Shown piece after piece: positions 2,220 through 18,732 of a stretch of DNA of 64,000 nucleotides. Location: contig CAJVXY010000002.1 of the NCBI GenBank assembly GCA_913009895.1, positions 93,279 through 157,278 on the forward strand. Direction: 5' to 3'. The translations under genes were made by a program, and so were the position numbers. The notes beneath the pieces were generated by a model. It was not told the origin of the DNA. It searched no databases and saw only the letters and a list, made by a program, of their open reading frames with translations. The number at the start of each line of letters is the position of its first letter. The first letter of the stretch is position 1. Origin of the DNA: an uncultured Acidiferrobacteraceae bacterium (GTDB taxonomy: Bacteria > Pseudomonadota > Gammaproteobacteria > Acidiferrobacterales > SZUA-150).

Positions 2220-3317
2220 TTGTTTCGCCTTTTTGATGCCGTAACAGAGATTTTACGGCTGAGGCGGCAACTATCTGACCTTAAAAGCAGCGTCAAGCAC
2301 AATGCCCAGGTATGGTCAGGGTTCCGGTTTATAGAAATCAGCCTGATTGGCGCCAAGACTTTCGACGAACTTATTGACGGACTGGCGGCCGGTTTCCCCC
2401 AAGCCTTTCCCGAGATAGACTGCATCACACTTGCCTGTTTTGATAATGATTATGAAATTACTCGCCTGTTAACCCAGGGCGGCAGACAGACGCCTCATCC
2501 TGCTTTTGTGCGCCTGGAGCCGGATGACTTATCTATCCTTTTTAGTAATTTTAATCGCCCGATGCTGGGTATCTGTGACGATTCCCTGCAAAGAACTTTT
2601 TTCCCAAATTTTGAAGGCATATTAAATTCTGCCGCAATCTCGCCATTGATTGTTCAAGACCGTTTAATAGGCTCGCTCAACCAGGGTAGCTGTAAAACAA
2701 ACCGGTTTTCAACTTCTTCAGCCACAGACATGTTGCAACACCTGACCGCTGTAACTGCAGTCACGGTTGATAATGTGCTTGTCCATGAACGATTGCGTGA
2801 AGATGGTTTAACCGACCCCCTGACAGGATTATCAAACCGTCGTTTCTTTGAGCGTCGTCTGAAAGAAGAAGTGAAACGCTGGTACCGCAATGACGGCGCC
2901 TTGTCATGCATGATTGTTGATATTGATTTTTTCAAGAAAGTGAATGATCAATATGGTCACCAGGTTGGCGACGATGTACTGAAAGTAGTTTCCACTGAAT
3001 TGGGTAGTGATTTGCGTGCAAGTGATGTGTTGGCCCGTTACGGTGGTGAGGAGTTTGTGCTTTTACTGCCTGAAACAGATGCTAACCATACCGTTGAGAT
3101 TGCTGAACGTTTACGGGAACGTATCGCCAACAAGCAAGACTGGGAATGTTCAGTGCCGGTATCGCTTACCATTTCAATAGGTGTATCGACATTAACCGCT
3201 GCCAACCTTGAGCAAACCCATGCCTGTAACTGGTTAGTCAGACAGGCAGATACCGCATTATATAAAGCCAAGAACCGGGGCCGGAATTGTGTCGTCCAGG
3301 CCCAGGAGTCGGGCTAG
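2220..3317 (+). CDS. Diguanylate cyclase (GGDEF) with N-terminal GAF-like sensory region
   Basis: Contains DPLTGLSNRR, RYGGEEFVLLLPETD and ALYKAKNRGRN, the GGDEF signature. The TTG start is uncertain. Confidence 0.85.
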   Translation: MFRLFDAVTEILRLRRQLSDLKSSVKHNAQVWSGFRFIEISLIGAKTFDELIDGLAAGFPQAFPEIDCITLACFDNDYEITRLLTQGGRQTPHPAFVRLEPDDLSILFSNFNRPMLGICDDSLQRTFFPNFEGILNSAAISPLIVQDRLIGSLNQGSCKTNRFSTSSATDMLQHLTAVTAVTVDNVLVHERLREDGLTDPLTGLSNRRFFERRLKEEVKRWYRNDGALSCMIVDIDFFKKVNDQYGHQVGDDVLKVVSTELGSDLRASDVLARYGGEEFVLLLPETDANHTVEIAERLRERIANKQDWECSVPVSLTISIGVSTLTAANLEQTHACNWLVRQADTALYKAKNRGRNCVVQAQESG

Positions 3318-3333
3318 GGTCCGGTTCTGGTTG

Positions 3334-4311
3334 TTATGCCGATTGTGTACTCCCTGGTGTTAGCAGGTGTAGTAAATTTACGACCGCCAGTAGTAATAAT
3401 GCAGCCACTGCGTTATGGACAGTGACTACTGACAGTGGTAGCTCTGTTAAAACAGAAGTTACTCCCAGCAAAACCTGCAATACAAGAAATACAAGAATAC
3501 TGATGCTGGTGTTGTAGAATCGCTCGTTTAAACCCGACATTTTAATTGCGAGAACTGCCAGGTATATAAAGGTAATAAACGCACCTATCCTGTGCACCAT
3601 GTGTATTGTTAACTGGATATTTCCGGCAATAACCCTTCCCTGGTCGTCCACAGAGAGTCGACGCGATATATCGAAACCATCGCTTAAATTGGCAATAGCT
3701 GTCCAGTCACCGTTACAACCAAGCAGGTTTGTGCAAGCAGGTGCAGCAAAATTAGCACTCGTCCAGGCACCAAACATAATCTGGATAACCAGGATAACCA
3801 GGCCAAGCAGCACCCAGGGTTTCATTGTTGTGAACGCGTGGTTTACCCCCATTTCAAACGGAACTAATCGTTGACTCATCCACCACAGTAAAGCCAGCAT
3901 GGCCATGCCACCCAGCAGGTTTCCCAGTGTGACAATAGGCAAATCCGGTGATGGCGTGTTGTAACCCAGTACAGATAAAAAGACAGTGAGCCCGAATACG
4001 AGCAAAGGAATAAATACGCCAGCGCCCTGGGTAGCACGTCCTCGTAATGCCATATATGCGATACCCAGTACAATAAAGCCTAACAGGGAAGCGGCAATTC
4101 GGTGAATGACACCTGCCCATGTTTTAGGTACAACACTGCGTTCATGAACCAGTGATATTTGGCCATAACACTCCGGCCAGGGCTCACAACTTAAGCCCAC
4201 GCTATCAAGGCGCATATAGGCACTTAATACCACGGCAGCAAATGTCAGTAATAATGCCAGGTTAATCAGGAGTGAATAAAGGTTGGCGGTTGATTTGCTA
4301 TTTGTCACCAT
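3334..4311 (-). CDS. ctaA: Heme A synthase (COX15/CtaA family)
   Basis: Polytopic membrane protein with the Cys pair CEPWPECYG and the HR motifs (VIHRIAASL, HMVHRIGAF) characteristic of CtaA/COX15. Confidence 0.8.
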   Translation of the reverse strand: MVTNSKSTANLYSLLINLALLLTFAAVVLSAYMRLDSVGLSCEPWPECYGQISLVHERSVVPKTWAGVIHRIAASLLGFIVLGIAYMALRGRATQGAGVFIPLLVFGLTVFLSVLGYNTPSPDLPIVTLGNLLGGMAMLALLWWMSQRLVPFEMGVNHAFTTMKPWVLLGLVILVIQIMFGAWTSANFAAPACTNLLGCNGDWTAIANLSDGFDISRRLSVDDQGRVIAGNIQLTIHMVHRIGAFITFIYLAVLAIKMSGLNERFYNTSISILVFLVLQVLLGVTSVLTELPLSVVTVHNAVAALLLLAVVNLLHLLTPGSTQSA

Positions 4312-4442
4312 AATTATTTTATCCCGTTTAAGTTCTGGCTGGGGAATTGTCTATATGTCCGAGAATACACACTAGATAACAGACCCTGGGTAGAAATGTC
4401 AAAAAGCGAATCTGCAAGTATACGTAAACAACGGTTGCAAAC

Positions 4443-4456
4443 TTAACACAGGTCAA
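4443..4456. promoter_or_regulatory. Candidate FNR/Dnr-type box TTAAC-ACAG-GTCAA (reverse complement TTGAC-CTGT-GTTAA)
   Basis: Imperfect palindrome in the divergent ctaA / heme-copper operon intergenic region. It has the same half-sites as the box upstream of nirS (15635-15648). Confidence 0.4.
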
Positions 4457-4670
4457 GTGAATGCGTAGTTGGCAGTGTTCTACTGACAATCTGGCAGTGG
4501 CAGGTTAGTACGAGACATTAAGAATATTATCATAATCTAATATTATGACTGTCGCAGTTATGTTTTTTTTCAGGCGTAAGTGCATGAACGTCTAACCAAT
4601 ATAATGTTACTACTTTGCTGCAATAATGTGGTAGATTGATTTGCAACACTAGGCAATAAAGGTTTCTAAT

Positions 4671-4700
4671 CTAATTCAATATGGTCTAATTCAATATGGA
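4671..4700. repeat. Tandem direct duplication, 2 x 15 bp (ctaattcaatatgg + 1 nt)
   Basis: ctaattcaatatggt at 4671-4685 and ctaattcaatatgga at 4686-4700. The second copy runs into the GGAGGTGG Shine-Dalgarno of the 4712 small ORF. Confidence 0.8.
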
Positions 4701-4711
4701 GGTGGCACCAG

Positions 4712-4870
4712 ATGTCCAATGAAAATCGAGAGGAGAATGAAGAAATTCCAGTAATGCAGCGTATTCTTGATAATCCGTTCCTTTTATTGTTTCTGGGAGT
4801 AGTTATTCCGACTGTGTTTTATATTATTTGGGGGATTATGGAGATTATACACGTACCTATCGCAAAATAA
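4712..4870 (+). CDS. Small single-TM protein (52 aa), possible subunit IIa-like accessory subunit of the downstream heme-copper enzyme
   Basis: Below the ORF-track length cutoff. The ATG is preceded by GGAGGTGG. Translation is MSNENREENEEIPVMQRILDNPFLLLFLGVVIPTVFYIIWGIMEIIHVPIAK, with one hydrophobic helix. It lies directly 5' of subunit II. Confidence 0.5.
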   Translation: MSNENREENEEIPVMQRILDNPFLLLFLGVVIPTVFYIIWGIMEIIHVPIAK

Positions 4871-4926
4871 TTAAGTTAAGAATTTTAACTGGAAAAACTT
4901 TTAACTAAAAAATTGGAGGTAGCACT

Positions 4927-5466
4927 ATGAGCTCCCTTTTACCACCACCAGATCGAATCTGGTGGAAAGAGCCATTAGAAAGAGTAGAGCTAATCTGGGT
5001 CGCCATTGCACTGGTGTGGAGTATTGTTATGTTCTTCATGATGCCTTATTGGCATGTGTACGGAAAACAGAACGTGTCAAACGAGGCCTACAAAACCACG
5101 CCTGAAGCCTTTAAAGCCAAGACTGAAGCAATGGTCGAACAATACACGGTGCGGACAGAGACGGCCGGAAATATACCCGTCGTCAGACCTCCTGTGGGAG
5201 ATGTTTATTTACTGGCACGGTTGTGGGAGTGGTGGCCTATTTTGGAGCTGGAAAAGGACCAGAGCTACCGCTTGCATATTGCATCACTTGACTGGCAACA
5301 CGGTTTTTCACTGCAGCCCGCAAATATCAATCTCCAGGTATTACCTGGTTATGAGATGGTGGTGACCGTCACACCGAATAAGTCTGGTGAATACTCAATT
5401 GTTTGTAACGAATATTGCGGGATCGGCCATCATAGAATGATTGGCAAGATCTACGTAACGGAATAA
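4927..5466 (+). CDS. Heme-copper oxidase superfamily subunit II, CuA-type, ba3-like (single TM plus cupredoxin)
   Basis: CuA ligand pattern DWQHGF ... CNEYCGIGHHRM (H, CxxxCxxxHxxM). The C-terminus VCNEYCGIGHHRMIGKIYVTE closely resembles the Thermus ba3 subunit II C-terminus. At 179 aa with one TM helix it matches B-family architecture. Confidence 0.85.
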   Translation: MSSLLPPPDRIWWKEPLERVELIWVAIALVWSIVMFFMMPYWHVYGKQNVSNEAYKTTPEAFKAKTEAMVEQYTVRTETAGNIPVVRPPVGDVYLLARLWEWWPILELEKDQSYRLHIASLDWQHGFSLQPANINLQVLPGYEMVVTVTPNKSGEYSIVCNEYCGIGHHRMIGKIYVTE

Positions 5467-5478
5467 GGGGAGGAGGAT

Positions 5479-7170
5479 ATGGCAAATAACAACGAATTTC
5501 GCACCTGTCCGGATACCGGATTACAGTTTCACCGACCAGCTGAGACGCTAATGAAGTTAAACGCTGTGGTAGCAGTTGTTTTTCTGCTGGTAGGTGGCAT
5601 CCTGGGTTTATTGTTAGGGTTGACACGATGGCCGGCTATTCATTTGCTTGGCGCATCAGATTTTTACAAAGTACTGACACTCCATGGTATTGATGTCTTG
5701 ATTTACTGGATCATTTTCTTTGAAATAGCAGTACTTTATTTTACATCATCGACGTTATTGAAATGTCGGCTGGCAACACCGCGTATGGCCTGGCTGGCTT
5801 TTGCACTAATGTTGATCGGTGCCGTCACTAATAATGTTGCAATTTTGCAAGGCAATTCCAGTGTGATGTTTACGTCTTACGTACCAATGCAGGCAGACCC
5901 GATGTTTTATCTTGGCCTGATTCTGTTTGCTGTTGGGGCGCTCATTGCCAGTTTTGTTTTTCTTGGAACCCTGGTGATTGCCCGGGCCGAGAAGACATAT
6001 GAGGGGTCTATGCCGTTGGTGACTTTTGGTGCCCTGACAGCAGCTATAATTGCAATATTTACCATTGCCTCGGGCGCGATCATTTTAATACCGACATTTT
6101 TATGGTCGGTGGGCTTGATTGAAGGTATTGATCCGATTATGTACCGGGTGATCTGGTGGGCCTTCGGCCATTCCTCGCAGCAAATCAACATGGCCACCAT
6201 GGTTGCAGTGTGGTATGCCGTCGCTGCCGTTGCGTTTGGTGCCAAGCCTTTGTCAGAAAAAATGTGTCGCAGCGCTTTCCTGTTGTACATATTGTTCCTG
6301 CAACTCGCTAGTGCCCATCATATACTCGTGGATCCTGGCATTAGTTCAACCTGGAAAATATTTAATACCAGTTATGCCATGTACCTGGCGGTGCTTGCCA
6401 GTATGATTCATGGCTTGACAGTTCCAGGCGCAATCGAGGCCGCTCAGCGCAAACGGGGTTTCAATAAAGGTTTGTTCGAATGGTTGCGCAAGGCACCCTG
6501 GAGCAATCCCTCATTTTCCGGCGTATTCCTGTCTATCATTATTTTTGGGTTCCTGGGCGGCATATCAGGCGTAGTGATGGGGACTGAGCAAATTAACCTG
6601 ATTATCCATAATACCCTTTATGTACCAGGACACTTTCATGCGACAGTTGCTACCGGTACAACCCTGGCCTTTATGGCTTTAACGTATTGGTTAGTGCCGG
6701 TATTGTTTCGTCGCCAGGTAATTTTTCCAAAGCTTGCAAGTTTGCAACCGTACCTTTTTGGCTTGGGCATGTCAGGGGTCGCCTTGTTTATGATGGGCGC
6801 AGGAACACTTGGCATACCGCGACGGCATTGGGATATTACCTTCGCCGACTCACCATTGACTCATAATTTCCCGGAGATGGCCAACGCGTTGCTCGGTTTC
6901 ATGGGCGTATCAGTACTCCTGGCCGTGGTAGGTGGCGGCCTATTCTGTTTACTGATAGTAGGTTCATTATTATTTGGCAAGCGTTTGAGCCTGACTGAGA
7001 AGGGCGAAACGCCGTTGATAGCAGAACCCGTTACCAGTTACGAAGGTGTTGGAATTGGTAAAATAGTGGCACCGGGGACACTGGTGCTGGCGATGGTGTT
7101 TTTGACAGCATTCGTTCTCTACTATTTTATTAACTGGAAATTCCTGTCGCAGACCTGGGGTTTGAGTTGA
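5479..7170 (+). CDS. Heme-copper oxidase superfamily subunit I, B-family-like, lacking the helix-VI cross-link tyrosine; candidate NO reductase (sNOR/eNOR-type)
   Basis: 563 aa. Ligand His are H69 (LTLHG), H231 (GHSSQQ), H280/H281 (SAHHIL) and H385/H387 (PGHFHAT). These parallel ba3 H72/H233/H282/H283/H384/H386. Position 235, equivalent to ba3 Y237, is Gln. Confidence 0.85.
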   Translation: MANNNEFRTCPDTGLQFHRPAETLMKLNAVVAVVFLLVGGILGLLLGLTRWPAIHLLGASDFYKVLTLHGIDVLIYWIIFFEIAVLYFTSSTLLKCRLATPRMAWLAFALMLIGAVTNNVAILQGNSSVMFTSYVPMQADPMFYLGLILFAVGALIASFVFLGTLVIARAEKTYEGSMPLVTFGALTAAIIAIFTIASGAIILIPTFLWSVGLIEGIDPIMYRVIWWAFGHSSQQINMATMVAVWYAVAAVAFGAKPLSEKMCRSAFLLYILFLQLASAHHILVDPGISSTWKIFNTSYAMYLAVLASMIHGLTVPGAIEAAQRKRGFNKGLFEWLRKAPWSNPSFSGVFLSIIIFGFLGGISGVVMGTEQINLIIHNTLYVPGHFHATVATGTTLAFMALTYWLVPVLFRRQVIFPKLASLQPYLFGLGMSGVALFMMGAGTLGIPRRHWDITFADSPLTHNFPEMANALLGFMGVSVLLAVVGGGLFCLLIVGSLLFGKRLSLTEKGETPLIAEPVTSYEGVGIGKIVAPGTLVLAMVFLTAFVLYYFINWKFLSQTWGLS

Positions 7171-7291
7171 CCCGTGTTTCAGTAAGTTAATGCCTGGCAG
7201 GTAGTTTCAGGATGCCTGCCTGGCGATCATTTGTGATGGCCATAGCTGGTGAGGAAAAGTTGATATAAAAACTTAATCGAAAATAAATACT

Positions 7292-8161
7292 ATGCTGAGT
7301 TTACTCGTTAATGTTTTTAAACTTAGAATCGGCTTGCTGATTGCACTAACAGCGTTAGCCGGATTTGCAGTTACGCCTGGCAGGGATTTGGCATCCTGGC
7401 AAATTGCTGTTCTGGGCCTGCTGGTGCTGATGTCTTCAGCCAGTGCTGGTGCCTTTAACCAGTATGCTGAACGAGATCTGGATGCGAACATGAAGCGTAC
7501 CCGGAATCGGCCGTTTGTCACGGGTGAGCTCAATCATAATAGTACCTGGTTATGGGGTATTGCAGGATTATTGGTATTCGCCGTAACCACAGCTGCCTGG
7601 TTATTTAATGCAGCCACCGCATTTTATATTTTTATGGGTGCATTTGTGTATGCGGTGATTTATACCGTATGGCTTAAGAGAAGAAGTGTATTAAATATAG
7701 TTATCGGTGGTCTGGCGGGTAGTTTTGCAGTACTTGGCGGGGCTGCTGCTGCTGATCCCAACCTGGGTCCAGTGGCAATATTACTGGCAGTGGTATTATT
7801 TTTATGGACACCTCCGCACTTCTGGAGCCTGGCGATTGCCCTGCACAAGGACTATGCGGCAGCCAGGGTGCCAATGTTGCCCGTGGTAGTTGGCGATGCT
7901 GCTGCTGCTAAAATTATTTTTACCAATACGGTGTTGCTGGTAATTGCATCATTGGCACCGGTTTATTATGGCCTTGGCTGGGTGTATTTAATTTGTGCAA
8001 TGTCAGGCGGTATATATTTTCTTTATAAAAGCTATCAACTTATCTATACACCTACAAAAAAGATGGCGATGGCCAATTTTTTTGCCTCGATTATCCAGCT
8101 TTCCCTGATCCTGATTGGTGTTATGCTTGATACACAGTTTACAAGATGGGAAGTTTTTTGA
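7292..8161 (+). CDS. ctaB: Protoheme IX farnesyltransferase (heme O synthase)
   Basis: UbiA-family motif NQYAERDLDANMKRTRNRP in a polytopic protein of 289 aa. Confidence 0.85.
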   Translation: MLSLLVNVFKLRIGLLIALTALAGFAVTPGRDLASWQIAVLGLLVLMSSASAGAFNQYAERDLDANMKRTRNRPFVTGELNHNSTWLWGIAGLLVFAVTTAAWLFNAATAFYIFMGAFVYAVIYTVWLKRRSVLNIVIGGLAGSFAVLGGAAAADPNLGPVAILLAVVLFLWTPPHFWSLAIALHKDYAAARVPMLPVVVGDAAAAKIIFTNTVLLVIASLAPVYYGLGWVYLICAMSGGIYFLYKSYQLIYTPTKKMAMANFFASIIQLSLILIGVMLDTQFTRWEVF

Positions 8162-9000
8162 ACTTAAAGCAGAAAAAAGTTTTAATTTTTTTTGTTGTTT
8201 TATTGTTGTTTTTTTCTCCAGCACACTGGCTGGCAGCTGCGGAAACACCTGTAACCAGCAAACCTGAGTTACGGAAATTTGAAAAATCCTCGGCTTTGGT
8301 AACCAGCCAGGGCGCCATTGGCCACGTAACCGGTGATTATACGTTCTACGATCGCCAGCAGCGAAAGGTACTACTCTCAAGCTATCGCGGTAAACCCCTG
8401 ATCATAAGTTTGATATTTACAAGCTGCCATCATATCTGTCCGACAACTACACAAAATTTAGCGAATGTGGTTAAACTTGCCCAGGAGGTTCTGGGTGAAG
8501 ATAGTTTTAACATTGTTAGCATCGGCTTTGATGTACAAAATGACACGCCTGATGCGATGCGCAATTTTGCAATTCAACAAGGCGTGGATGAAATACCTGG
8601 CTGGGAATTTTTAAGTGCTGACGCACCTACAATAAATGCATTGACTGGTGAACTGGGTTTCCAGTTCTTTCCTTCGGCAGGTGGGTTTGATCATTTAATC
8701 CAAACCAGCCTGATCGATGCCGAGGGCGCTGTATATCGCCAAGTGTATGGTACAAAATTCAATACACCATTACTGGTAGATCCATTAAAAGAGCTGGTTT
8801 TTGGGCGACCGGTTAAAGGTTCGCTGGTAACATCGATACACAATAGAATTCGGCTGTTTTGTACTGTCTATGACCCGGCAAGTGGTCGTTATATTTTTGA
8901 TTACTCCCTTTTTGTCGGGATGATTATTGGTTTTATAATATTAATTTCAATTTCTATATGGCTGGTTCGTGAATGGCGAAAATCAGCCACAAGTAAATGA
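8146..9000 (+). CDS. senC: SCO1/SenC family copper chaperone, with N-terminal signal and C-terminal TM helix
   Basis: Thioredoxin-like CxxxC site (FTSCHHICPTT) plus a downstream conserved His (GGFDHLIQTSLID). The C-terminal hydrophobic helix is FVGMIIGFIILISISIWLV. Overlaps the ctaB stop. Confidence 0.75.
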   Translation: MGSFLNLKQKKVLIFFVVLLLFFSPAHWLAAAETPVTSKPELRKFEKSSALVTSQGAIGHVTGDYTFYDRQQRKVLLSSYRGKPLIISLIFTSCHHICPTTTQNLANVVKLAQEVLGEDSFNIVSIGFDVQNDTPDAMRNFAIQQGVDEIPGWEFLSADAPTINALTGELGFQFFPSAGGFDHLIQTSLIDAEGAVYRQVYGTKFNTPLLVDPLKELVFGRPVKGSLVTSIHNRIRLFCTVYDPASGRYIFDYSLFVGMIIGFIILISISIWLVREWRKSATSK

Positions 9001-9100
9001 GAAAAATAATACAAGTAACAAGTAAGTGCAGAATTACATTATGGTATCTTTTTCTCGATATGCGTAAAGTTCGGTATTGTTTAATTAAAGGAGCCTCTCT

Positions 9101-10681
9101 TTGCTAGAAAGAACGCAGAGAAGTGGTCGACGACTCTTCGAATGGGTAGAGGCCGGATTCAATCGAATTGGCGGCCATCGCTGGAATCCATTTTATCAGC
9201 TCGGGGCCCTGTCATTTTTCTTTTTCTGGATCATTACTGTCAGCGGCCTGTATCTTTACATTTTCTTTAGAACTGGCACGACAGCAGCTTATGAATCAGT
9301 AGAATACCTGACTATTGATCAGTGGTATCTTGGCGGTGTGATGCGTAGCTTGCATCGTTACGCATCGGATGCGTTTGTAGTTACAATTGTATTGCATATT
9401 CTGCGTGAGTTCTTCATTGGTCGTTACCGCTACTTTCGCTGGTTCTCCTGGGTTACCGGTGTCCCGTTGCTATGGCTAACGTTTGCGGCGGGAATCGGGG
9501 GCTATTGGCTGGTATGGGACAGCCTGGCCCAGTACATTGCGATAACTACGGCTGAATGGCTGGATTGGCTGCCTTTTCTTACCGATCCGATTGCGCGTAA
9601 TTTTCTCAACCAGGCAAGCATGAGTGATCGATTCTTTTCACTACTGTCATTCCTGCATATCGCCATACCTTTATTCTTGCTATTGGGTATGTGGATACAT
9701 ATCCAGCGTATGACACTTCCTCGCTCCAATCCAACACGTATCCTGGCTGTGGGTACTATCTCGGCGCTGTTAGTGCTTTCGTTTATCCTGCCAGCCACGA
9801 GCCAGGAACCAGCCAACCTTGATAATCTTGTCTTTACGGTAAATCTTGACTGGTTTTATCTCAATTTTTACCCTTTGCTTGATAAATGGTCGGCTGGCAG
9901 CATCTGGGCACTGGTTTTTGGTGTTACATTGTTGTTAGTGGTGATGCCCTGGTTACCGCCTCACAAACCAGAACCCGTTGCCGTAGTCGATCTCGAGAAT
10001 TGCAATGGATGTGGGCGCTGTTTCGATGACTGTCCATTTGGCGCAGTTGATATGTTTCCACGTACAGATAATTTACCATTTTCCCATGAGGCCGTTGTTG
10101 ACAGCGCATTATGCGCCAGTTGCGGCATTTGTGTTGGTTCTTGCCCAACCGCAACGCCATTCAGGCGGGCGACAGCTTTGGTGCCAGGTATAGATATGCC
10201 GCAGTTAAAGATCGCGGATATCCGGGATAAAACCGTACAAGCCGCAGAAAAATTAACTGGTCATGACAGGGTGATAGTATATGGTTGTCGAAATGGGACC
10301 GACATAAACAGGTTACAGGGATCAGGCGTGGCGGTAATTTCATTACCGTGTATTTCTGCTTTACCGCCGTCTTTTATAGATTTTGTGATTGCACGTGGCC
10401 ATGCTGAGGGTGTGTTCCTCACAGGTTGTCAGCAGGGCGATTGTTACTACCGCTTGGGCATTGACTGGACAGAACAACGTATAGCCGGACTTCGTGATCC
10501 TGCGCTTCGAAAAAAGGTGCCACGTGAGCGTGTAGCCACATGCTGGTCCGGCCCGGTAGGATTTGCCAGGCAAAAAGCCGAACTGGTTTCATTCAGGGCC
10601 CAGTTGCTGGAAATGGGACCTAACAGAAGGAACGGTGCAATCATTAATAAAACCGATACACCTGACAGCAAAGGGGGGTGA
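9101..10681 (+). CDS. Fusion protein: di-heme cytochrome b-like membrane domain + 2x[4Fe-4S] ferredoxin + MvhD/FlpD-like domain
   Basis: Two helices each carry His pairs at i/i+14 (HRYASDAFVVTIVLH and HIAIPLFLLLGMWIH), as in bc1/b6f cytochrome b. These are followed by CNGCGRCFDDCP and CASCGICVGSCP. The last domain has VYGCRNG...LPCISALP...LTGCQQGDCYYRLG, which is MvhD-like. TTG start with AGGAG 8 nt upstream. Confidence 0.7.
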   Translation: MLERTQRSGRRLFEWVEAGFNRIGGHRWNPFYQLGALSFFFFWIITVSGLYLYIFFRTGTTAAYESVEYLTIDQWYLGGVMRSLHRYASDAFVVTIVLHILREFFIGRYRYFRWFSWVTGVPLLWLTFAAGIGGYWLVWDSLAQYIAITTAEWLDWLPFLTDPIARNFLNQASMSDRFFSLLSFLHIAIPLFLLLGMWIHIQRMTLPRSNPTRILAVGTISALLVLSFILPATSQEPANLDNLVFTVNLDWFYLNFYPLLDKWSAGSIWALVFGVTLLLVVMPWLPPHKPEPVAVVDLENCNGCGRCFDDCPFGAVDMFPRTDNLPFSHEAVVDSALCASCGICVGSCPTATPFRRATALVPGIDMPQLKIADIRDKTVQAAEKLTGHDRVIVYGCRNGTDINRLQGSGVAVISLPCISALPPSFIDFVIARGHAEGVFLTGCQQGDCYYRLGIDWTEQRIAGLRDPALRKKVPRERVATCWSGPVGFARQKAELVSFRAQLLEMGPNRRNGAIINKTDTPDSKGG

Positions 10682-10684
10682 GCC

Positions 10685-11077
10685 ATCATCTTAATTGAGT
10701 GGAAAGAAGAATTCTCTGTTGGCGTGCCGGGAGTTGATCATGAGCATAAAGTACTGGTTGATCTTTTGAACAGGCTTTATGAAAATTTGATGCGAGAGTC
10801 GACTGCTGAAGAGGTGGAAGAATTTCTTGGCGAGATTTACGCCAGGATATCAGCGCATTTTGCATTGGAGGAAAATATCATGCGCGAGCAACATTATGAC
10901 CAGTATAGTGAACACAAGGCGGACCATGAGCGGTTGCTGGACGAGATTCGTGACATCATGGATGACCATACTGCAATGGAAAATTCGGACAAGGACAAGT
11001 TTGCCGAACGCTTAAAATCATGGTTTGTTAATCACTTCAAGACCCAGGATGCCAGGCTTCATGGACGTTTGTCATAA
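10685..11077 (+). CDS. Hemerythrin-like (bacteriohemerythrin) protein; true start unclear
   Basis: Metal-ligand pattern VDHEH, HFALEE, HKADHE, NHFKTQD. The track ORF starts at GTG 10724, but the conserved N-terminal IEWKEEFSVGV lies upstream. It is reachable only from ATC/ATT codons (10685-10696) or by reading through the upstream TGA (10679-10681). Confidence 0.75.
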   Translation: MILIEWKEEFSVGVPGVDHEHKVLVDLLNRLYENLMRESTAEEVEEFLGEIYARISAHFALEENIMREQHYDQYSEHKADHERLLDEIRDIMDDHTAMENSDKDKFAERLKSWFVNHFKTQDARLHGRLS

Positions 11078-11158
11078 TGACAGAAGTAAGAAATGCCATG
11101 TTAAAGAGAAACTTGATAATTCAGGTAATATTTTACCGCGCAGGATTTTAGGGAAATA

Positions 11159-11704
11159 ATGATGACCAGGGTATTACAATATATAGGCCAGGTAGTAGCA
11201 TACGGAGGGTTCATTATTTTTGTCGGCTACTTGTCTGCTGCACCTGCCTATGTTCACCTGCAGCCAGGCCAGGCTCAAATAAAGCTTAGCTTTAGTCATG
11301 CGGGAAAGCCCGTCAGTGAATGTCGTGAACGTAGCGATGAAGAGCTTGCACGTCTTGCGCCTAATATGCGCGTAAGAAAAGTATGCCCCAGAGAACGTTC
11401 CGGTGTAGCTGTAGTGCTGGAGGTGGATGACAAGTTGTTGTATAGCGATATTTTACAACCCTCCGGCCTGAAAAAAGACGGGACATCAACAACATACAGA
11501 AAATTCACGGTTAAAGCCGGTAAGTATAAAATAAAAATAAAACTCAAGGATGACTTCCGGAAATCAACGACCATCAAAGATGTGTCAAAGTTAAATGCAG
11601 GTGATTTTAATTACACATATTCCCGGAAAGTCTATCTCGGTGCAGGAAAAATAATGGTCATTGATTTTAATAAGGAGGCAGATGGATTTGTTTTCAGTTT
11701 TTGA
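11159..11704 (+). CDS. Hypothetical N-terminally anchored protein (181 aa)
   Basis: One N-terminal TM helix (VVAYGGFIIFVGYLSAAPAYV) followed by a Lys-rich soluble domain that looks beta-rich. I recognise no family. Placed between the hemerythrin and the second heme-copper-like gene. Confidence 0.5.
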   Translation: MMTRVLQYIGQVVAYGGFIIFVGYLSAAPAYVHLQPGQAQIKLSFSHAGKPVSECRERSDEELARLAPNMRVRKVCPRERSGVAVVLEVDDKLLYSDILQPSGLKKDGTSTTYRKFTVKAGKYKIKIKLKDDFRKSTTIKDVSKLNAGDFNYTYSRKVYLGAGKIMVIDFNKEADGFVFSF

Positions 11705-11793
11705 TGAAGTTAGTATAGTGATAACAGGCAATTTAATCTTCCCGGTAGATAACCAGAGCTTTTATCTGTTTTAAAAAAAGTTAAACATACGAT

Positions 11794-13161
11794 ATGCAGG
11801 AAGATTTCATACTATCGGTACCAAAAGATAACCGTCGGGATTTAGCCAAAGGCTGGCTCTGGCTGGGTTTAATTTCTCTATTAGTATCAGGAATTTTTTC
11901 AGTTCTCCTGGTAGTCTTTCGCACGCCCTATATCCAGAATATTTTCTCCTCGGTAGATTTTTTTCGAACTGCTCTGGTTGTCCATGTAGATCTTTCTGTT
12001 TTGGTCTGGTTTCTTGCTTTTGGTGGCGTGTTCTGGAGTTTGAATTCCACTACCAGTTTCATACGGCTCGGTTGGTCAGCATTATTCTTTGCCACGCTGG
12101 GTACGATAGTGATGGTGCTGGCGCCATTTATTGGTAATGGCAACCCGCTGATGAGTAATTATATTCCTGTCTTGCAGGATTCAGTGTTTATAACAGGTTT
12201 GTTGTTTTTTGCATTTGGTATCACCTTGCTGGTTCTGCGAAGTATGTTTGCTATCCCACTGGTAGGGCTGCAAATTACAGGTGTTGGTTCATTACGTTTC
12301 GGCCTGAATACCGCTGCTATATCTGCAATTATGGCGCTGCTCGCATTTTTCTGGTCTTTTCTGGCTATGCCGGATTTTGTTACTGGAAAAGCCTTTTACG
12401 AACTCCTGTTTTGGGGTGGCGGCCACATGCTGCAATTTACATATACATTGCTCATGCTCGTCGCCTGGTTGTGGTTGGCTACTGCTTCGGGTCTCCGCAT
12501 TGCCCTGAGTCCAAGAGTTGTGCTGCTTCTTTTCATATTAGGTCTAATGGCGGTATTCACGGTTCCGCTAATTTATTATTCCTACAAAATAATTTCAGTT
12601 GAACACATTAAACTCTTTACCTGGTTGATGGCGTATGGTGGCAGCCTGGCCACACTACCATTGGCTTTGGCAATTCTTCACGGTTTTTTTATTAGCTCAC
12701 CAGCATCAGGATCACAGACACCCTTACGAGCAAGTTTGATCATGTCTATGATTTTATTTGGTGTCGGTGGTGTTATCGGTTTCCTGATCGAGGGGAGTAA
12801 CGTTACGATTCCCGCCCATTATCACGGTTCTATTGTCGGCGTTACATTGGCATTTATGGGGATGACGTATAATTTACTGCCGCGTTTTGGTTATAAGTAT
12901 CCTGATGTGAAATTGGCTCGTATTCAACCCTATATATATGGAGGTGGCCAGTTATTGCATGTATCAGGATTAGTATGGTCAGGAGGATATGGTGTCCAGC
13001 GAAAAGTTGCAGGTATTGAGCAGGGGCTCGACGACATGGAAAAAATTGCCGCGATGGGCTTGATGGGCCTGGGGGGATTGGTCGCGATTATAGGCGGACT
13101 GATGTTTCTCCTAGTGGTTTATAAAGCCATGGCAAACAGGAAAACGCAAGAAACAGCCTAA
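11794..13161 (+). CDS. Heme-copper oxidase subunit I-like polytopic membrane protein with incomplete metal-ligand set
   Basis: 455 aa and about 12 TM. Has LVVHVDL (H64), FWGGGHMLQF (H211) and IPAHYHGSIVG (H342/H344), at spacings reminiscent of HCO helices II, VI and X. There is no HH pair where helix VII would be; YY261-262 sits there. Confidence 0.55.
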   Translation: MQEDFILSVPKDNRRDLAKGWLWLGLISLLVSGIFSVLLVVFRTPYIQNIFSSVDFFRTALVVHVDLSVLVWFLAFGGVFWSLNSTTSFIRLGWSALFFATLGTIVMVLAPFIGNGNPLMSNYIPVLQDSVFITGLLFFAFGITLLVLRSMFAIPLVGLQITGVGSLRFGLNTAAISAIMALLAFFWSFLAMPDFVTGKAFYELLFWGGGHMLQFTYTLLMLVAWLWLATASGLRIALSPRVVLLLFILGLMAVFTVPLIYYSYKIISVEHIKLFTWLMAYGGSLATLPLALAILHGFFISSPASGSQTPLRASLIMSMILFGVGGVIGFLIEGSNVTIPAHYHGSIVGVTLAFMGMTYNLLPRFGYKYPDVKLARIQPYIYGGGQLLHVSGLVWSGGYGVQRKVAGIEQGLDDMEKIAAMGLMGLGGLVAIIGGLMFLLVVYKAMANRKTQETA

Positions 13162-13256
13162 AGAACGTAAAAAATATCTACAGCAGTTGCCGGATGAAAT
13201 GGTTTTTTCTAATACTACTAATCGTTGATTGCAGTTAGTTAAGCAAAAAGTAATGA

Positions 13257-13466
13257 TTACGTTTTCGTAAAGTACTGCGTCAGTTGAAATAGCGCGAGGG
13301 CTAGCGTAAGGATAATCACGAAAAAAATCAGGCTACGATTTTGAAGACGTTCACCCCGTTTTTCTTCAATACGATTGAGAATCCAGTCTGATCCAAGATA
13401 GAGCGTTATTCCTGCTAAAGTAAACAAGACTATTTCCAAAAGTTGACTCCTGTGAATAATAAGCAA
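13257..13466 (-). CDS. Small two-TM membrane protein (hypothetical)
   Basis: Two hydrophobic helices separated by RIEEKRGERLQNR. An internal TTG at 13439 has AGGAG 7 nt upstream and may be the real start. No family recognised. Confidence 0.35.
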   Translation of the reverse strand: MLIIHRSQLLEIVLFTLAGITLYLGSDWILNRIEEKRGERLQNRSLIFFVIILTLALALFQLTQYFTKT

Positions 13467-13816
13467 TATTAAAAGTTAGCCAGAAAATATGCCAGGGGAC
13501 AAGTAATGCAAAAAAATTGGGTTCTTGGCCAACATGTCCAGGCATTTTTATCAATCTTACTGCCAAACCCCAAGCAGTAATTTCGTTCAAGTTTATCACG
13601 ATGCTGAATTTGCCGTAAAAAGAATTTTCCCAGGAGGTTTATGAGTGCCTGACTCGGAGGTATATATAAAAGTGATTTATCAATGTTTGCCCTGTTAAAT
13701 TAAAAGCAGGAGAGTACCCACTATAAAATTACGGGTATATATTTTTTAACATATCTCAACTAAATCATAGGATATTTCAGAAAATGGGCATATATTGTTG
13801 AGATGCAATATATGTT

Positions 13817-13830
13817 TGATGTAAGTCAAT
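13817..13830. promoter_or_regulatory. FNR/Dnr-type box TTGAT-GTAA-GTCAA
   Basis: Matches TTGAT-N4-ATCAA at 9 of 10 positions and exactly fits the TTGAT-N4-GTCAA variant. It lies about 156 bp upstream of the nirI-like start. Confidence 0.55.
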
Positions 13831-13985
13831 TACTTGGAAGTTAGTCTATGGTTAAACTTACGTAATAGTAATCTGGCCACGTTGCAGGTTGCTTGATTTT
13901 TTTTTGAGTGGTGTATCTGGATTTATAAACAGAGGCTGTCATAAAAAATTTATCTAAACATAGAATATTAGACTTACCCTGTCTT

Positions 13986-15524
13986 ATGGTGGGCATATTC
14001 TTGCTCACGGTGAGTGCTGGTGTATTTGCTGGTGGTACACTGGAAACCTACCCTGAAATAAAAAATTTTTTCCCTGCTTTAACCCGTGTCGGTGATATTG
14101 CTGGCGAGCCGCCTGCAGCACCTGTGTACCAGCAAGGTAAACTTCTGGGATATGTATTTTCTACACAAGCAATAGCACCTATTCCTGCTTATTCGGGTAA
14201 ACCTATTAACATCCTGGTTGGCTTGAATCTTTCCGGACAGATAACGGGCCTTAAGATAATCGAACATCACGAGCCAATTTTATTGGTTGGCGTTTCTGAA
14301 AAACAATTAAAAGAATACATTGATCAGTACCAGGGCGTGGACATTTTTGATCGCGTCCGGGTAGGGGCAGAAAAGAAAGCGGGCTCAGTGGGTATTGACA
14401 CGATTAGTGGCGCGACCATTACTGTGATGGTCTCCAATGCCACTATTGTCAATTCTGCCAGAACCGTTGCGGCCAGGTACGGCATTACTCGTAGTAGAAA
14501 GTCGGGTAAAAGCTCGCCAGTAATTTTAACAAGACAGGCCCCGGTTGCGGCTGAAAAAGAACTTCCGGCAAATAACCCGGCTGAGACTCCCTTGGTCTCA
14601 GAAGCGCCAGACCTGGAGCGGGCCTGGGTCACCATCTGGGAAGGTCGTGCTATTGAGATTGGTATTTTGGTTTTTGCCCTGTTCTTATTGACAGCAATCC
14701 TGTTATTTCAGGATTGGATTGTACGACGACCAACCCTGTATGAATATTTACGGAATGGTTATTTATTATTTACTGTTTTTTTTATTGGTGGTTATGCGTT
14801 GGCACAGCTTTCTATTGTTAATGTTTTGACCTTTGTTCATGCTTTTGTCCATGACTTCAGGTGGGAAACCTTTGCCCTGGACCCCCTTATATTTATTCTC
14901 TGGGTATTTGTTGCATTCACTTTGTTGTTATGGGGGCGCGGGGTGTACTGCGGCTGGTTATGTCCATTTGGTGCTATGCAGGAATTGATAAACATGGTTG
15001 CCCGTCGCTTTAAGGTTAAGCAGTGGGAATTCCCGACTATGGTTCATGAGCGTCTTTGGGCAATAAAATACGTGGTGTTGATTGCATTGTTCGGCATCTC
15101 ACTACAGTCACTATCATTGGCAGAGTATTACGCAGAAATCGAACCATTTAAAACCACGATTCTGCGTTTTGATCGGGCATGGCCATTTGTGCTTTATGTG
15201 GTGGTCCTGTTAATGATTTCTATAGTCAATCGCAAGTTTTATTGTAAATATATTTGCCCCCTGGCAGCTGCCCTCATAATTCCGGCCCAAAACCGGGTTT
15301 TTGACTGGGTAAGAAGACGCAATGAATGTGGTAAACCATGCCAGGTCTGCGCTGATTTATGTGAAGTACAGGCGATCGCACCAACTGGTGAAATTAACAA
15401 GAATGAATGTCATTATTGTCTGGACTGCCAGGTAACATACTGGAATGAATACAAATGCCCACCCCTGGTCCAGGAACGTAAAAAGCGGGAACGGCATATT
15501 GCTGTTCATAGCCTTTCGAATTAA
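13986..15524 (+). CDS. nirI: NosR/NirI-family membrane protein (periplasmic FMN-binding domain, TM domain with CX3CP motifs, C-terminal polyferredoxin)
   Basis: FMN_bind-like GIDTISGATITV, CGWLCPFGAMQE and CKYICPLAA, and C-terminal CGKPCQVCADLCE / CHYCLDCQ...CPP. Sits directly 5' of nirS. It is shorter than classical NosR, and its start is uncertain. Confidence 0.75.
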   Translation: MVGIFLLTVSAGVFAGGTLETYPEIKNFFPALTRVGDIAGEPPAAPVYQQGKLLGYVFSTQAIAPIPAYSGKPINILVGLNLSGQITGLKIIEHHEPILLVGVSEKQLKEYIDQYQGVDIFDRVRVGAEKKAGSVGIDTISGATITVMVSNATIVNSARTVAARYGITRSRKSGKSSPVILTRQAPVAAEKELPANNPAETPLVSEAPDLERAWVTIWEGRAIEIGILVFALFLLTAILLFQDWIVRRPTLYEYLRNGYLLFTVFFIGGYALAQLSIVNVLTFVHAFVHDFRWETFALDPLIFILWVFVAFTLLLWGRGVYCGWLCPFGAMQELINMVARRFKVKQWEFPTMVHERLWAIKYVVLIALFGISLQSLSLAEYYAEIEPFKTTILRFDRAWPFVLYVVVLLMISIVNRKFYCKYICPLAAALIIPAQNRVFDWVRRRNECGKPCQVCADLCEVQAIAPTGEINKNECHYCLDCQVTYWNEYKCPPLVQERKKRERHIAVHSLSN

Positions 15525-15634
15525 TGATATGTATCAACAAAATTTGATGGTTATGTTAAATATGCTGGTGCCAGACGTAAAACGTATGAATACATCACCA
15601 AAAGCTGATATATGAAGGAGCTGGTATACTCGAC

Positions 15635-15648
15635 TTGACTTAGGTTAA
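15635..15648. promoter_or_regulatory. Candidate FNR/Dnr-type box TTGAC-TTAG-GTTAA
   Basis: Lies about 150 bp upstream of nirS. Its half-sites are identical to the reverse complement of the 4443-4456 box. Confidence 0.4.
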
Positions 15649-15747
15649 AGCAGAAATACGGTAATACATGTCAGTATAGGCATTATTTTCTTGGGATAAG
15701 GGTTCACAATTTATGTAGAATAACTCTTATTGACACAATATGTTTGA

Positions 15748-17535
<1,788 letters not shown>

Positions 17536-17618: not shown

Positions 17619-18416
17619 ATGAAAGATTCAGCCTGTGTGTATTTGGTTGGTACTGGACCTGGTGATCCTGATTTGTTAACAGTTAAAGCGCTACGTTTGT
17701 TGCAAAGTGCCGATGTTGTAATCTACGATCGCCTGGTTAATAAAGCGATCCTGCAACAAGTCCCCGCCGGCGTACTTAAAATATTTGTTGGTAAGGCAAC
17801 AAGCAATCACGCATTCTCCCAGGATGAAACCAATCGGTTAATGGTTAAACTTGCCGATAAAAAAAGAACTATTGTCAGGCTGAAAGGTGGCGACCCCTTT
17901 ATTTTTGGGCGTGGTGGTGAGGAGGCGTTGTACCTGGCCCAAAGGGACATCCCTTTTGAAATTGTGCCCGGGATAACGGCTGCCACGGCAGCTGCTACTT
18001 ATGCCGGAATACCGCTGACACACCGTGGATTAGTGCAAAGTGTACAGTTCATCACAGGCCACGGCCGGAATAACAAACCGCTGGATTTTGATTGGCAGAA
18101 ACTGGCCGACCCACAGACCACACTTGTTGTTTATATGGGGCTGGCGACTATTGGCGAAATAAGCAAACAGTTGATTGTTGCCGGGTTGCCGGCAGATATG
18201 CCAGTAGCCGCAATTGAAAATGGATCAACAGCCAGGCAACAGCGCTTGTTAACCACGTTAAAGGATGTACCAAAAGATGTAAAACTATATGGACTTCAGC
18301 CACCTGTTTTATTTGTCATTGGCAGAGTAGTGGGGCTGGCAGAATCCCTGGACTGGTTTATTACAGATGACCTTGATTCATGTGAAGGTGAACAGGATAA
18401 GCATGCGCAAGGCTAG
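17619..18416 (+). CDS. nirE: Uroporphyrinogen-III C-methyltransferase (SUMT) for heme d1 synthesis
   Basis: VYLVGTGPGDPDLLTVKALRLLQSADVVIYDRLV and GGDPFIFGRGGEE. The track ORF begins at 17574; the internal ATG at 17619 (MKDSACVYLVG) fits the family N-terminus. Confidence 0.9.
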   Translation: MKDSACVYLVGTGPGDPDLLTVKALRLLQSADVVIYDRLVNKAILQQVPAGVLKIFVGKATSNHAFSQDETNRLMVKLADKKRTIVRLKGGDPFIFGRGGEEALYLAQRDIPFEIVPGITAATAAATYAGIPLTHRGLVQSVQFITGHGRNNKPLDFDWQKLADPQTTLVVYMGLATIGEISKQLIVAGLPADMPVAAIENGSTARQQRLLTTLKDVPKDVKLYGLQPPVLFVIGRVVGLAESLDWFITDDLDSCEGEQDKHAQG

Positions 18417-18732
18417 GAGAGCGTGGCTCCTTTTCTGCATCAGTATTTTAACCCCTACCGCAATGGCAGAAATTACGGTTTCGCGCCAGGTAGAGTTAAA
18501 AAATCTTTTAGAGCAGGACTGTGGTTCATGTCATGGCCTGACGCTAAAGGGTGGCCTCGGCCCGGCTTTGACTATTGATGCCATGAAAAAGAAACCTCGG
18601 GCAGTCATGCTGGCAACAATATCAGATGGCCGTCCTGGTACACCCATGCCACCATGGAAAAATATTTTAACAGCTGAAGAGATAGCGTGGCTGCTTGATG
18701 TGTTATATAAAGGTAGTTACCGTGAAAAATAG
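18403..18732 (+). CDS. nirC: Cytochrome c55X
   Basis: Signal peptide plus CGSCHG. A small mono-heme c in the nir context. ATG 18403 overlaps the nirE stop. Confidence 0.8.
   Translation: MRKARRAWLLFCISILTPTAMAEITVSRQVELKNLLEQDCGSCHGLTLKGGLGPALTIDAMKKKPRAVMLATISDGRPGTPMPPWKNILTAEEIAWLLDVLYKGSYREK

Follow-up and report, generated by a model that had tools for sequence, protein, structure and literature searches.

The region described here lies in a 64,000-nucleotide stretch of contig CAJVXY010000002.1 (positions 93,279 to 157,278 of the forward strand), assembled from an uncultured Acidiferrobacteraceae bacterium. This whole stretch is called the window in what follows, and all negative statements on gene content hold for the window only. 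A preliminary description had recognized ten genes here, as a cluster built around a heme-copper enzyme and abutting the operon of nirS (cd1 nitrite reductase); all ten open reading frames (ORFs) were confirmed at their coordinates, and Pfam and NCBIfam profile searches back the assignments (Table 1). The cluster encodes a 52-residue peptide and subunits II and I of the enzyme, followed by a heme o synthase (CtaB), a SenC/Sco1-type copper chaperone, a cytochrome b-2x[4Fe-4S]-MvhD fusion protein (the cytochrome b fusion, from now on), a hemerythrin, a membrane-anchored 181-residue protein (p181) and a heme-copper oxidase (HCO)-like protein, with the heme A synthase gene (ctaA) diverging on the other side. 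On the sequence features given below, subunit I very likely belongs to eNOR, a family of nitric oxide reductases (NORs).

Among proteins of solved structure, the best relatives of subunit I are the ba3 oxidases, with that of Thermus thermophilus at the top (1e-54). All six histidine ligands are kept and invariant (the equivalents of ba3 H72, H233, H282, H283, H384 and H386), these being the two ligands of the low-spin heme, the one of the high-spin heme and the three of the non-heme metal. The preliminary description had also noted that the cross-link tyrosine is missing, and this is indeed the case: in the motif G-H231-S-S-Q234-Q235-I-N, H231 is the retained equivalent of ba3 H233 and Q235 aligns with the cross-link tyrosine (Y237 in T. 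thermophilus), so that a glutamine stands where B-family O2 reductases form their His-Tyr cross-link. This glutamine was found in 20/20 sampled orthologues of subunit I. Further changes relative to ba3 are found on both sides of it (V236 to Gln and W239 to Asn), whereas the K-channel residues S309, T315, Y248 and S261 have equivalents in subunit I (invariant for S309) and two others are changed, T312 to His and Y244 to Val or Ile. The enzyme does not have the hallmarks of cNOR or qNOR either, since the residue is Gln and not Glu and the partner subunit is a CuA cupredoxin. In this partner (subunit II) the CuA motif is complete (C160-N-E-Y-C164-G-I-G-H168-H-R-M171), and H125 is conserved within an invariant H-G-F-S-L-Q stretch.

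A glutamine at the position of the cross-link tyrosine has been reported to separate eNOR from the O2 reductases and from the other NORs (PMC8756737, after Hemp and Gennis 2008), and the purified enzyme from Rhodothermus marinus, the one biochemically validated eNOR, reduces NO but not O2 (PMC11214002). When relatives of subunit I were sought among 50%-identity representatives, the full-length ones fell into three classes: a Gln-type class with the motif HxxQQ[IV]N (including a Natrarchaeobius protein with 42% identity), an archaeal class with HxxQY[IV]N, in which the tyrosine is retained, and ordinary B-family sequences with HPxVYFW. In a distance-based neighbour-joining tree (with a simple distance correction, not a maximum-likelihood tree, and containing neither R. 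marinus or other named eNOR references nor sNOR, gNOR or nNOR sequences), the Gln-type sequences, Natrarchaeobius included, formed a single clade with 99% bootstrap, apart from the Tyr-type B-family, while the B-family group containing ba3 had 100%. Published work names Magnetospirillaceae, Rhodocyclaceae and haloarchaea as carriers of eNOR, and it is from these groups that the related loci come; it is because of the Gln signature, the Gln-type clade and these taxa that we make the eNOR assignment. The cofactor genes are in agreement with it, given that R. marinus eNOR has heme As in both heme sites and that many eNOR operons carry ctaA (PMC11214002). Here the structural genes lie between ctaA and ctaB, in line with a heme A-type cofactor.

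Two groups of archaeal or distant sequences found in this search deserve a separate mention. The nearest relatives of the eNOR clade that keep the tyrosine (P0248 and P0249, from Hodarchaeales, P0252, from Thermoproteota, and P0263) have the HxxQY[IV]N motif, sharing with eNOR the Gln that precedes the Tyr position and the Asn that follows; such sequences might stand between B-family oxidases and eNOR as intermediates, with weak support for their grouping in the tree (11-44% bootstrap). Additionally, five full-length HCO relatives with about 30% identity (P0302, P0316, P0329, P0370 and P0374) show Tyr at the equivalents of H282 and H384, with the motif H-x-x-H-Y-x-P, which reflects either a misalignment or a family with unusual ligands. 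A further observation concerns the N terminus of subunit I, where the stretch F-R8-T-C10-P-D-T-G-L (residues 8-15; window 5479-5540) precedes the first transmembrane (TM) helix and varies little or not at all within the eNOR clade, its haloarchaeal members and those with 55% identity included; we know of no function for it.

The similarity to the ba3 structures could also be read as a sign that the two subunits make up a ba3-type (B-family) terminal oxidase of an unusual kind, working at low O2, in which another residue replaces the tyrosine and the proximity of nirS reflects only shared low-oxygen regulation. The CuA site, the three metal-site histidines and most of the K-channel residues are retained, the heme A genes and the hemerythrin hint at O2, and the Accumulibacter homologues have been annotated and discussed as ba3 oxidase (PMC6446978). 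Two facts also weigh against our own assignment: a tyrosine in helix VII (Y270, ten residues before the HH pair) is invariant and might be a migrated cross-link tyrosine, and the direct biochemistry of the eNOR family comes from the R. marinus enzyme only. Nevertheless, we consider an oxidase very unlikely. Every sampled member has Gln at the Tyr position, the clade stands apart from the Tyr-bearing B-family with 99-100% bootstrap, and the linkage between eNOR and nir genes recurs in many lineages; moreover, in the single family member that has been purified, NO was reduced and no reduction of O2 was seen, and the authors of that study did not find a migrated tyrosine in these families (PMC11214002). 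The earlier view of the protein as a B-family-derived heme-copper enzyme and a strong NO-reductase candidate thus holds, based on the Gln signature, the intact ligands and the clade.

What does not hold is the idea that this is an atypical or undescribed NOR, given that it carries the diagnostic Gln of a family already described (PMC8756737) and validated in R. marinus (PMC11214002). The enzyme had also been likened to sNOR, because the order subunit II - subunit I - senC - extra ORF would resemble that of the norSY-senC-orf1 clusters. Membership in sNOR, or close analogy to it, is extremely improbable. The Gln at the Tyr position is the published diagnostic of eNOR (PMC8756737), and the equivalents of S309, T315, Y248 and S261 are kept, whereas in sNOR, as reported, the S309 equivalent is missing and the putative channel is another one, with a conserved Glu at a different place (PMC11214002). 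Besides, the relatives include the named eNOR carrier groups, and the eNOR operon of Ferrigenium straubiae, listed in a May 2026 preprint, has the same gene set (bioRxiv 10.64898/2026.01.22.701106). The sNOR identity was rejected on the first two of these points, the Gln signature and the retained S309 equivalent, and on its sequence the enzyme is neither an undescribed NOR type nor sNOR-like.

The genomic surroundings suggest what the enzyme would be used for. After a gap of 824 bp, the HCO-like gene is followed by a nirI-like gene and nirS, and then by nirE, a nirC-like cytochrome c gene, nirF, nirDLGH, nirJ and nirN, with a Crp/Fnr-type regulator gene after nirN on the opposite strand. The adjacency to nirS, pointed out before, is therefore real; it also recurs, with nir genes at 10 kb or less from the eNOR cluster in 34/74 loci of at least 15 kb. 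Neither norB and norC (whose absence had likewise been noted) nor other HCO genes were found among the 40 ORFs scanned outside the cluster. Since nirI-nirS and the genes for heme d1 are present in the window and norCB was not found, the NO is likely to be consumed by eNOR, and we think that the region is probably a proteobacterial-type eNOR operon, placed beside the nirS/heme d1 operon and supplying the NO reductase for the cd1 nitrite reductase.

Table 1. Genes of the eNOR cluster and the first two genes of the adjoining nir operon (positions in the window).
Gene or product	Position	Strand	Evidence and remarks
ctaA, heme A synthase	3334-4311	-	Pfam COX15-CtaA 3.5e-39; divergent from the eNOR operon
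52-residue peptide	4712-4870	+	one hydrophobic TM helix
eNOR subunit II (very likely assignment)	4927-5466	+	one TM helix and CuA cupredoxin domain; weak Pfam COX2 and NCBIfam CoxB matches
eNOR subunit I (very likely assignment)	5479-7170	+	COX1 1e-69
ctaB, heme o synthase	7292-8161	+	NCBIfam TIGR01473 5.4e-80, over cutoff
senC, SenC/Sco1-type copper chaperone with C-terminal TM extension	8146-9000	+	Pfam SCO1-SenC 4.8e-13
Cytochrome b-2x[4Fe-4S]-MvhD fusion, 526 residues	9101-10681	+	Pfam Cytochrome_B, Fer4, FlpD
Bacteriohemerythrin	10724-11077	+	NCBIfam hemerythrin domain 3.5e-23, over cutoff
p181, anchored protein of 181 residues	11159-11704	+	no Pfam or NCBIfam match
HCO-like 12-TM protein, 455 residues	11794-13161	+	COX1 3e-11
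nirI-like (NosR family) gene	13986-15524	+	FMN_bind and Fer4_5
nirS, cd1 nitrite reductase	15790-17535	+	Cytochrom_D1 4.9e-157

The NO-reductase activity of this enzyme, which we infer from its family membership, would quite probably serve NirS. In the mechanism we propose, NirS would produce NO in the periplasm, and a periplasmic carrier would deliver electrons to eNOR through the CuA of subunit II, to be passed by the low-spin heme to the high-spin heme/non-heme-metal centre in subunit I, where Gln235 would occupy the place of the cross-link tyrosine (and of the FeB-ligand Glu of cNOR). There, two NO molecules would be converted into N2O, with protons taken from the cytoplasm through the K-channel-like path, so that this reaction could conserve energy. 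Such a path is kept by eNOR, while cNOR has no cytoplasmic proton channel (PMC11214002). The heme A-type cofactor would be made by CtaA and CtaB, and CuA would be loaded by SenC, which has a CxxxC motif (C94-H-H-I-C98).

Some features of the surroundings can be reported beside this. A 121-residue ORF between nirE and nirF (18367-18732, plus strand) begins with a signal-like stretch and contains a single CGSCH heme c motif; judging from these features, it is probably a cytochrome c of the nirC type, and a candidate for carrying electrons in the periplasm. On the other side of the cluster, a GGDEF diguanylate cyclase gene (2220-3317, plus strand) ends 17 bp from the ctaA stop codon, in convergent orientation, and about 7 kb past the nir operon there is a gene for a fused PP2C phosphatase-Ser/Thr kinase (32156-33829, minus strand). 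A scan of the whole window for Fnr/Dnr boxes (TTGAT-N4-ATCAA, with one mismatch) gave 6 sites against 4.1 expected, which is not above chance, and none of them lies in the ctaA/eNOR intergenic region; one Fnr/Dnr-like box (TTGATGTAAGTCAA, at 13816-13829) is located inside the 824-bp gap, about 170 bp upstream of the nirI-like start. Promoter and terminator scans from 3000 to 16000 gave counts near those expected from shuffled sequence, and hence carry no information on the operon limits. Subunit I occurs with identical sequence on marine-metagenome contigs, and the nearest relatives of the source organism are metagenome-assembled genomes of Acidiferrobacterales, Chromatiales and Sulfuricaulis.

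In order to see which genes travel with the enzyme, two surveys were made. The first one started from subunit I and covered 80 genome loci (65-85% identity) from Gamma-, Beta- and Alphaproteobacteria, including the cultured genera Castellaniella, Noviherbaspirillum and Piscinibacter; downstream genes were counted in the 57 of these 80 loci with at least 7 kb of downstream sequence. In these long loci senC was present in 56/57, the p181 gene in 54/57, the cytochrome b fusion in 52/57 by ORF call (and in nearly all by tblastn), the HCO-like gene in 43/57, ctaB in 37/57 and the hemerythrin gene, again by ORF call, in 16/57. On the upstream side, the gene for the 52-residue peptide lies directly 5' of subunit II in 76/80 loci (48-80% identity), and a ctaA homologue is found beside the cluster in 29/80. 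The peptide is probably, by analogy, a small third subunit comparable to ba3 subunit IIa, and it would have this function in the mechanism outlined above. The second survey went in the reverse direction, with a profile of the cytochrome b fusion, and covered 80 metagenome loci (49-62% identity). The eNOR subunit I gene was found upstream in all 34 loci with enough upstream sequence and the p181 gene downstream in all 43 with enough downstream sequence; the HCO-like gene occurred in 8/43 only, and most loci had the hemerythrin, in the order cytochrome b fusion - p181 gene - hemerythrin.

The cytochrome b fusion and p181 thus accompany essentially all the surveyed proteobacterial-type eNOR loci, whereas the hemerythrin and the HCO-like gene are optional members of the cluster. 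The preliminary description had treated these four genes as one module and had allowed for their showing no conserved synteny with the enzyme; they proved to be conserved with the subunit I clade, near-constantly for the first pair and facultatively for the second. In 13 of 121 loci the cytochrome b fusion and p181 are themselves fused in frame into one ORF, which is good evidence that the two work together physically. The same association is seen in a distant locus (L164, with a subunit I 55% identical), where these parts are arranged differently and lie next to nirS and nap, in the order HCO-like gene, small peptide, subunit II, subunit I, SenC, a 715-residue cytochrome b-FeS-MvhD::p181 fusion (FeS standing for iron-sulfur) and UbiA. 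In the haloarchaeal eNOR locus examined (L163), on the other hand, the small peptide is found together with subunits II and I and a UbiA gene, and the four accessory genes (cytochrome b fusion, hemerythrin, p181 and HCO-like) are all missing. As a side observation, in metagenome loci with no HCO-like gene (for instance L145:10915-12168 and L095:11462-12193) the genes that come after the hemerythrin include nirS in 15/38, a NosR/NirI-like gene in 13/38, a membrane protein that looks NnrS-type, as judged by eye, in 6 and a Crp/Fnr regulator in 5.

The composition of the cytochrome b fusion is well defined. Its cytochrome b part is of the bc1/b6 type, with about six TM helices (cytochrome b6 profile match at 4e-29), and has four invariant histidines, H85, H99, H186 and H200, with 13 residues between the two of each pair, corresponding to two b hemes on helices B and D. 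An invariant D250-W251 pair is found in the stretch L-D-W-F-Y-L-x-F-Y-P-L-L, whose beginning (L-D250-W-F-Y) we take to resemble the PEWY loop of the Qo site. After the sixth helix come two CxxCxxCxxxCP motifs and an MvhD-like [2Fe-2S] domain (Pfam FlpD 1.6e-10; solved MvhD 7e-13), with C396, C417, C443 and C448 invariant. According to the positive-inside rule, the N terminus, the loops after helices B and D and the FeS/MvhD parts would be cytoplasmic, and the PEWY-like loop would be outside. No Rieske domain was detected by Pfam among the ten cluster products.

Its constant partner, p181, has about 1076 homologues, and all the named ones among the 120 listed are hypothetical proteins. The AlphaFold2 model (pLDDT 93) consists of one N-terminal TM helix and a beta-sandwich, for which the search against PDB folds gave none below E = 1e-3, returning only generic beta-sandwiches (best E = 3.5e-3, TM scores 0.25-0.37) and no match to Cox11, Sco or PCuAC-type chaperones. 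The invariant residues are C55, E62, R71, C76, R78, R80 and Y113, with no His or Met among them, which makes a classical copper or Rieske centre unlikely. From the fusions to the cytochrome b protein, the p181 domain is predicted to face the periplasm.

Regarding the two optional members, the HCO-like protein is homologous to eNOR subunit I along its entire length (hhalign probability 99.6%, E = 8e-25, 430 columns), and its AlphaFold2 model (pTM 0.88) has B-family oxidases as best folds (TM scores 0.71-0.74); its profile search against PDB sequences gave nothing at E <= 0.01. It keeps equivalents of H72, H233, H384 and H386 (the three heme histidines and the first metal-site one), W229 and R449, but Phe replaces the tyrosine in 24/24 sequences and I260-Y261 replaces the HH pair of helix VII, so that, from its sequence, it is a protein with heme ligands kept and a degenerate catalytic metal site. 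The hemerythrin has a complete di-iron set, with histidines at the expected spacing (H8, H45, H64, H68 and H104) together with E49 and D109, and no signal peptide was found. The furthest upstream start of its ORF is a GTG at 10724; the protein begins at position 12-15 of the family profiles, with an N terminus shorter than in typical bacteriohemerythrins and the ligand histidines present.

None of the four downstream genes had been recognized in the preliminary description as part of any described NOR, and this has to be corrected: the gene set is not new, having been described for one genus, Ferrigenium. The F. straubiae operon comprises eNOR II, eNOR I, heme o synthase, Sco1, a cytochrome b-FeS-FAD-NAD protein, a hypothetical protein, an "eNOR scaffold protein" (with a KO assignment to cytochrome oxidase subunit I), PerM and a second cytochrome b-FeS protein, annotated as ferredoxin/F420-hydrogenase delta subunit; an Fdx-FNR-like domain is there fused to a cytochrome b (bioRxiv 10.64898/2026.01.22.701106). 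The HCO-like protein of the window is the counterpart of this scaffold protein. In that organism the eNOR II transcript reaches 10,800-15,000 transcripts per million (TPM) during denitrifying Fe(II) oxidation, against 74-153 TPM in microoxic conditions, and the accessory transcripts are also up under denitrification, far below eNOR, with their proteins detected; in the proteome (in the units reported), eNOR I/II are at 31.6, and Sco1, the cytochrome b proteins and the scaffold protein at 23.9-28.0 (bioRxiv 10.64898/2026.01.22.701106). The authors regarded the core set as common and the two cytochrome b proteins as unusual, suggested the latter as Ferrigenium markers and proposed a quinol:NAD+ supercomplex (bioRxiv 10.64898/2026.01.22.701106). 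The presence of cytochrome b proteins in almost every proteobacterial-type eNOR locus surveyed argues against their use as such markers. What our survey adds is the near-universal presence of the cytochrome b fusion and p181, their recurrent fusion, and the absence of the accessory genes from the haloarchaeal locus examined. Searches of the literature for eNOR together with hemerythrin or Accumulibacter brought up nothing about these accessory genes.

The Fdx-FNR-like domain is also found outside Ferrigenium, in the clusters of 27/80 genome loci, mostly titled as Betaproteobacteria or Burkholderiales-type genera (L070 and 26 others among L025-L077). In L070 it is the C-terminal part of a 648-residue cytochrome b-[2Fe-2S] ferredoxin-FNR-like protein (L070:15457-17403). 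No cytochrome b fusion of this type is present in the window.

With respect to function, the cytochrome b fusion and p181 would together form a dedicated membrane redox unit, wiring a periplasm-facing quinol-type site (PEWY-like loop and two b hemes) to cytoplasmic FeS clusters and passing electrons between eNOR and either the quinone pool or a cytoplasmic reductant, with the hemerythrin and the degenerate HCO paralogue as optional helpers. We favour this electron-transfer role because an outer loop resembling a quinol site and cytoplasmic FeS centres suit the movement of electrons across the membrane, and the FNR-bearing cytochrome b paralogue would tie the wire to NAD(P)H. Even so, the assignment of the unit as an electron-transfer partner of eNOR is a tentative one, somewhat short of probable on the sequence features described. 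Several points weigh against electron input by this route: the CuA site is intact, and R. marinus eNOR works with N,N,N',N'-tetramethyl-p-phenylenediamine (TMPD)/ascorbate (PMC11214002); the haloarchaeal locus does without the four genes; and neither a Rieske-type nor another high-potential partner for a Qo-like site is encoded in the cluster. Moreover, the accessory transcripts and proteins of F. straubiae, far below eNOR I/II and near Sco1, suit assembly (bioRxiv 10.64898/2026.01.22.701106). A dedicated electron-input module, as suggested in the preliminary description, is made plausible by the domains present, and assembly agrees about as well with the low relative expression in F. straubiae.

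The last point leads to the main rival explanation, rather doubtful but not far behind the first one, in which the downstream genes (at least the cytochrome b fusion and p181) encode maturation factors of eNOR and not electron donors. They would help heme A to be made and inserted when O2 is very low, by supplying redox equivalents, O2 or metal; the hemerythrin would carry O2 or iron, and the HCO-like protein would be a scaffold that binds heme. The place of the accessory genes among the biogenesis genes ctaB, senC and ctaA speaks for this, as does an HCO-like protein in which the heme ligands are retained while the tyrosine and two of the three metal-site histidines are gone. In eukaryotes, heme A synthase requires a ferredoxin with its ferredoxin reductase, and the Fdx-FNR-like domain in the 27 loci mentioned above parallels this requirement (its fusion to a cytochrome b having been read in L070 only). 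Heme A synthesis needs O2 and yet eNOR is made near-anoxically, a puzzle raised by the authors of the Ferrigenium preprint (bioRxiv 10.64898/2026.01.22.701106), in whose data the accessory proteins have levels similar to Sco1 and below eNOR I/II, with transcripts far lower. On the other side, several observations speak against a maturation role: the cytochrome b fusion and p181 are constant while ctaA and the hemerythrin vary, the haloarchaeal eNOR locus has none of the accessory genes, and p181 has neither invariant His or Met nor a fold match of the Cox11, Sco or PCuAC type. We are also aware of no assembly factor that is a bc-type di-heme cytochrome b and has a conserved PEWY-like loop.

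Both explanations have a more far-reaching form, which we consider unlikely. In the first, the proteobacterial eNOR would differ from the simple enzyme of two subunits, fed by cytochrome c, that has been characterized so far; it would belong to a larger assembly where a bc-type cytochrome b with no Rieske partner, connected to cytoplasmic FeS/MvhD clusters and to p181 as a new periplasmic beta-sandwich subunit, links the reduction of NO to the quinone pool or cytoplasmic carriers. In the second, the module would be a new system for the maturation of heme A-dependent enzymes at almost no O2. If the first form were true, electrons could pass directly from quinol or NAD(P)H to NO, or those of quinol could be split between NO and a low-potential acceptor.

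Whatever the role of the accessory genes, the identity of the enzyme has consequences for how these genomes are read. The source names seen on subunit I and its relatives are those of subunit I of cytochrome c oxidase or of a cbb3-type oxidase, and with such names a nirS organism carrying this enzyme looks free of NO reductase. Recognizing eNOR changes the predicted end product of denitrification from NO to N2O, both in this marine organism and in many of its relatives. What remains of interest is the accessory redox module, conserved within a cluster architecture that is widespread; the near-constant and sometimes fused cytochrome b fusion and p181 bear on the electron supply of eNOR and on heme A synthesis at very low O2, and the cultured carriers (among them Castellaniella defragrans DSM 12141, Noviherbaspirillum sp. 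ST 5-3 and Piscinibacter caeni) make the accessory function accessible to experiment.

Comparing the cluster with known systems, the closest one is the eNOR family itself (R. marinus, the "cytochrome a1-like" protein of Magnetospirillum magnetotacticum, and F. straubiae), with which it shares Gln in place of Tyr, a CuA subunit II, K-channel-like residues, the presence of ctaA and ctaB in the cluster and the linkage to denitrification genes. The likeness to the F. straubiae operon extends to Sco1 and to the cytochrome b-FeS, hypothetical and HCO-like scaffold proteins; the window cluster differs in having the MvhD-type cytochrome b fusion only, with no Fdx-FNR one, in carrying a hemerythrin, and in coming from an uncultured marine organism. 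With the ba3 oxidase of T. thermophilus it has in common the order small TM peptide - CuA subunit II - subunit I, the six histidines and the residues S309, T315, Y248 and S261, but Y237 is Gln in the window enzyme, which belongs to a separate clade. We know of no accessory redox genes like these associated with the ba3 operon.

The cNOR system (norCBQD) belongs to the same superfamily, has the same presumed reaction and adjoining nir genes, and likewise has a residue other than Tyr four positions after the first metal-site histidine (Glu in cNOR, Gln here); unlike cNOR, the window enzyme receives electrons through a CuA cupredoxin instead of the cytochrome c NorC, has no NorQ or NorD, and carries K-channel-like residues. 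As for the accessory unit, the cytochrome b domain of the fusion resembles the cytochrome b of bc1/b6f complexes in its four heme histidines and PEWY-like loop, whereas no Rieske protein or cytochrome c1/f is encoded near it. Finally, the C-terminal part of the fusion matches the ferredoxin and MvhD end of HdrA2, as well as MvhD itself, in the manner of the Hdr/Mvh connector modules; in contrast to these, there is no HdrA flavoprotein nearby, the cytochrome b, ferredoxin and MvhD parts are joined in one chain, and the partner is p181.

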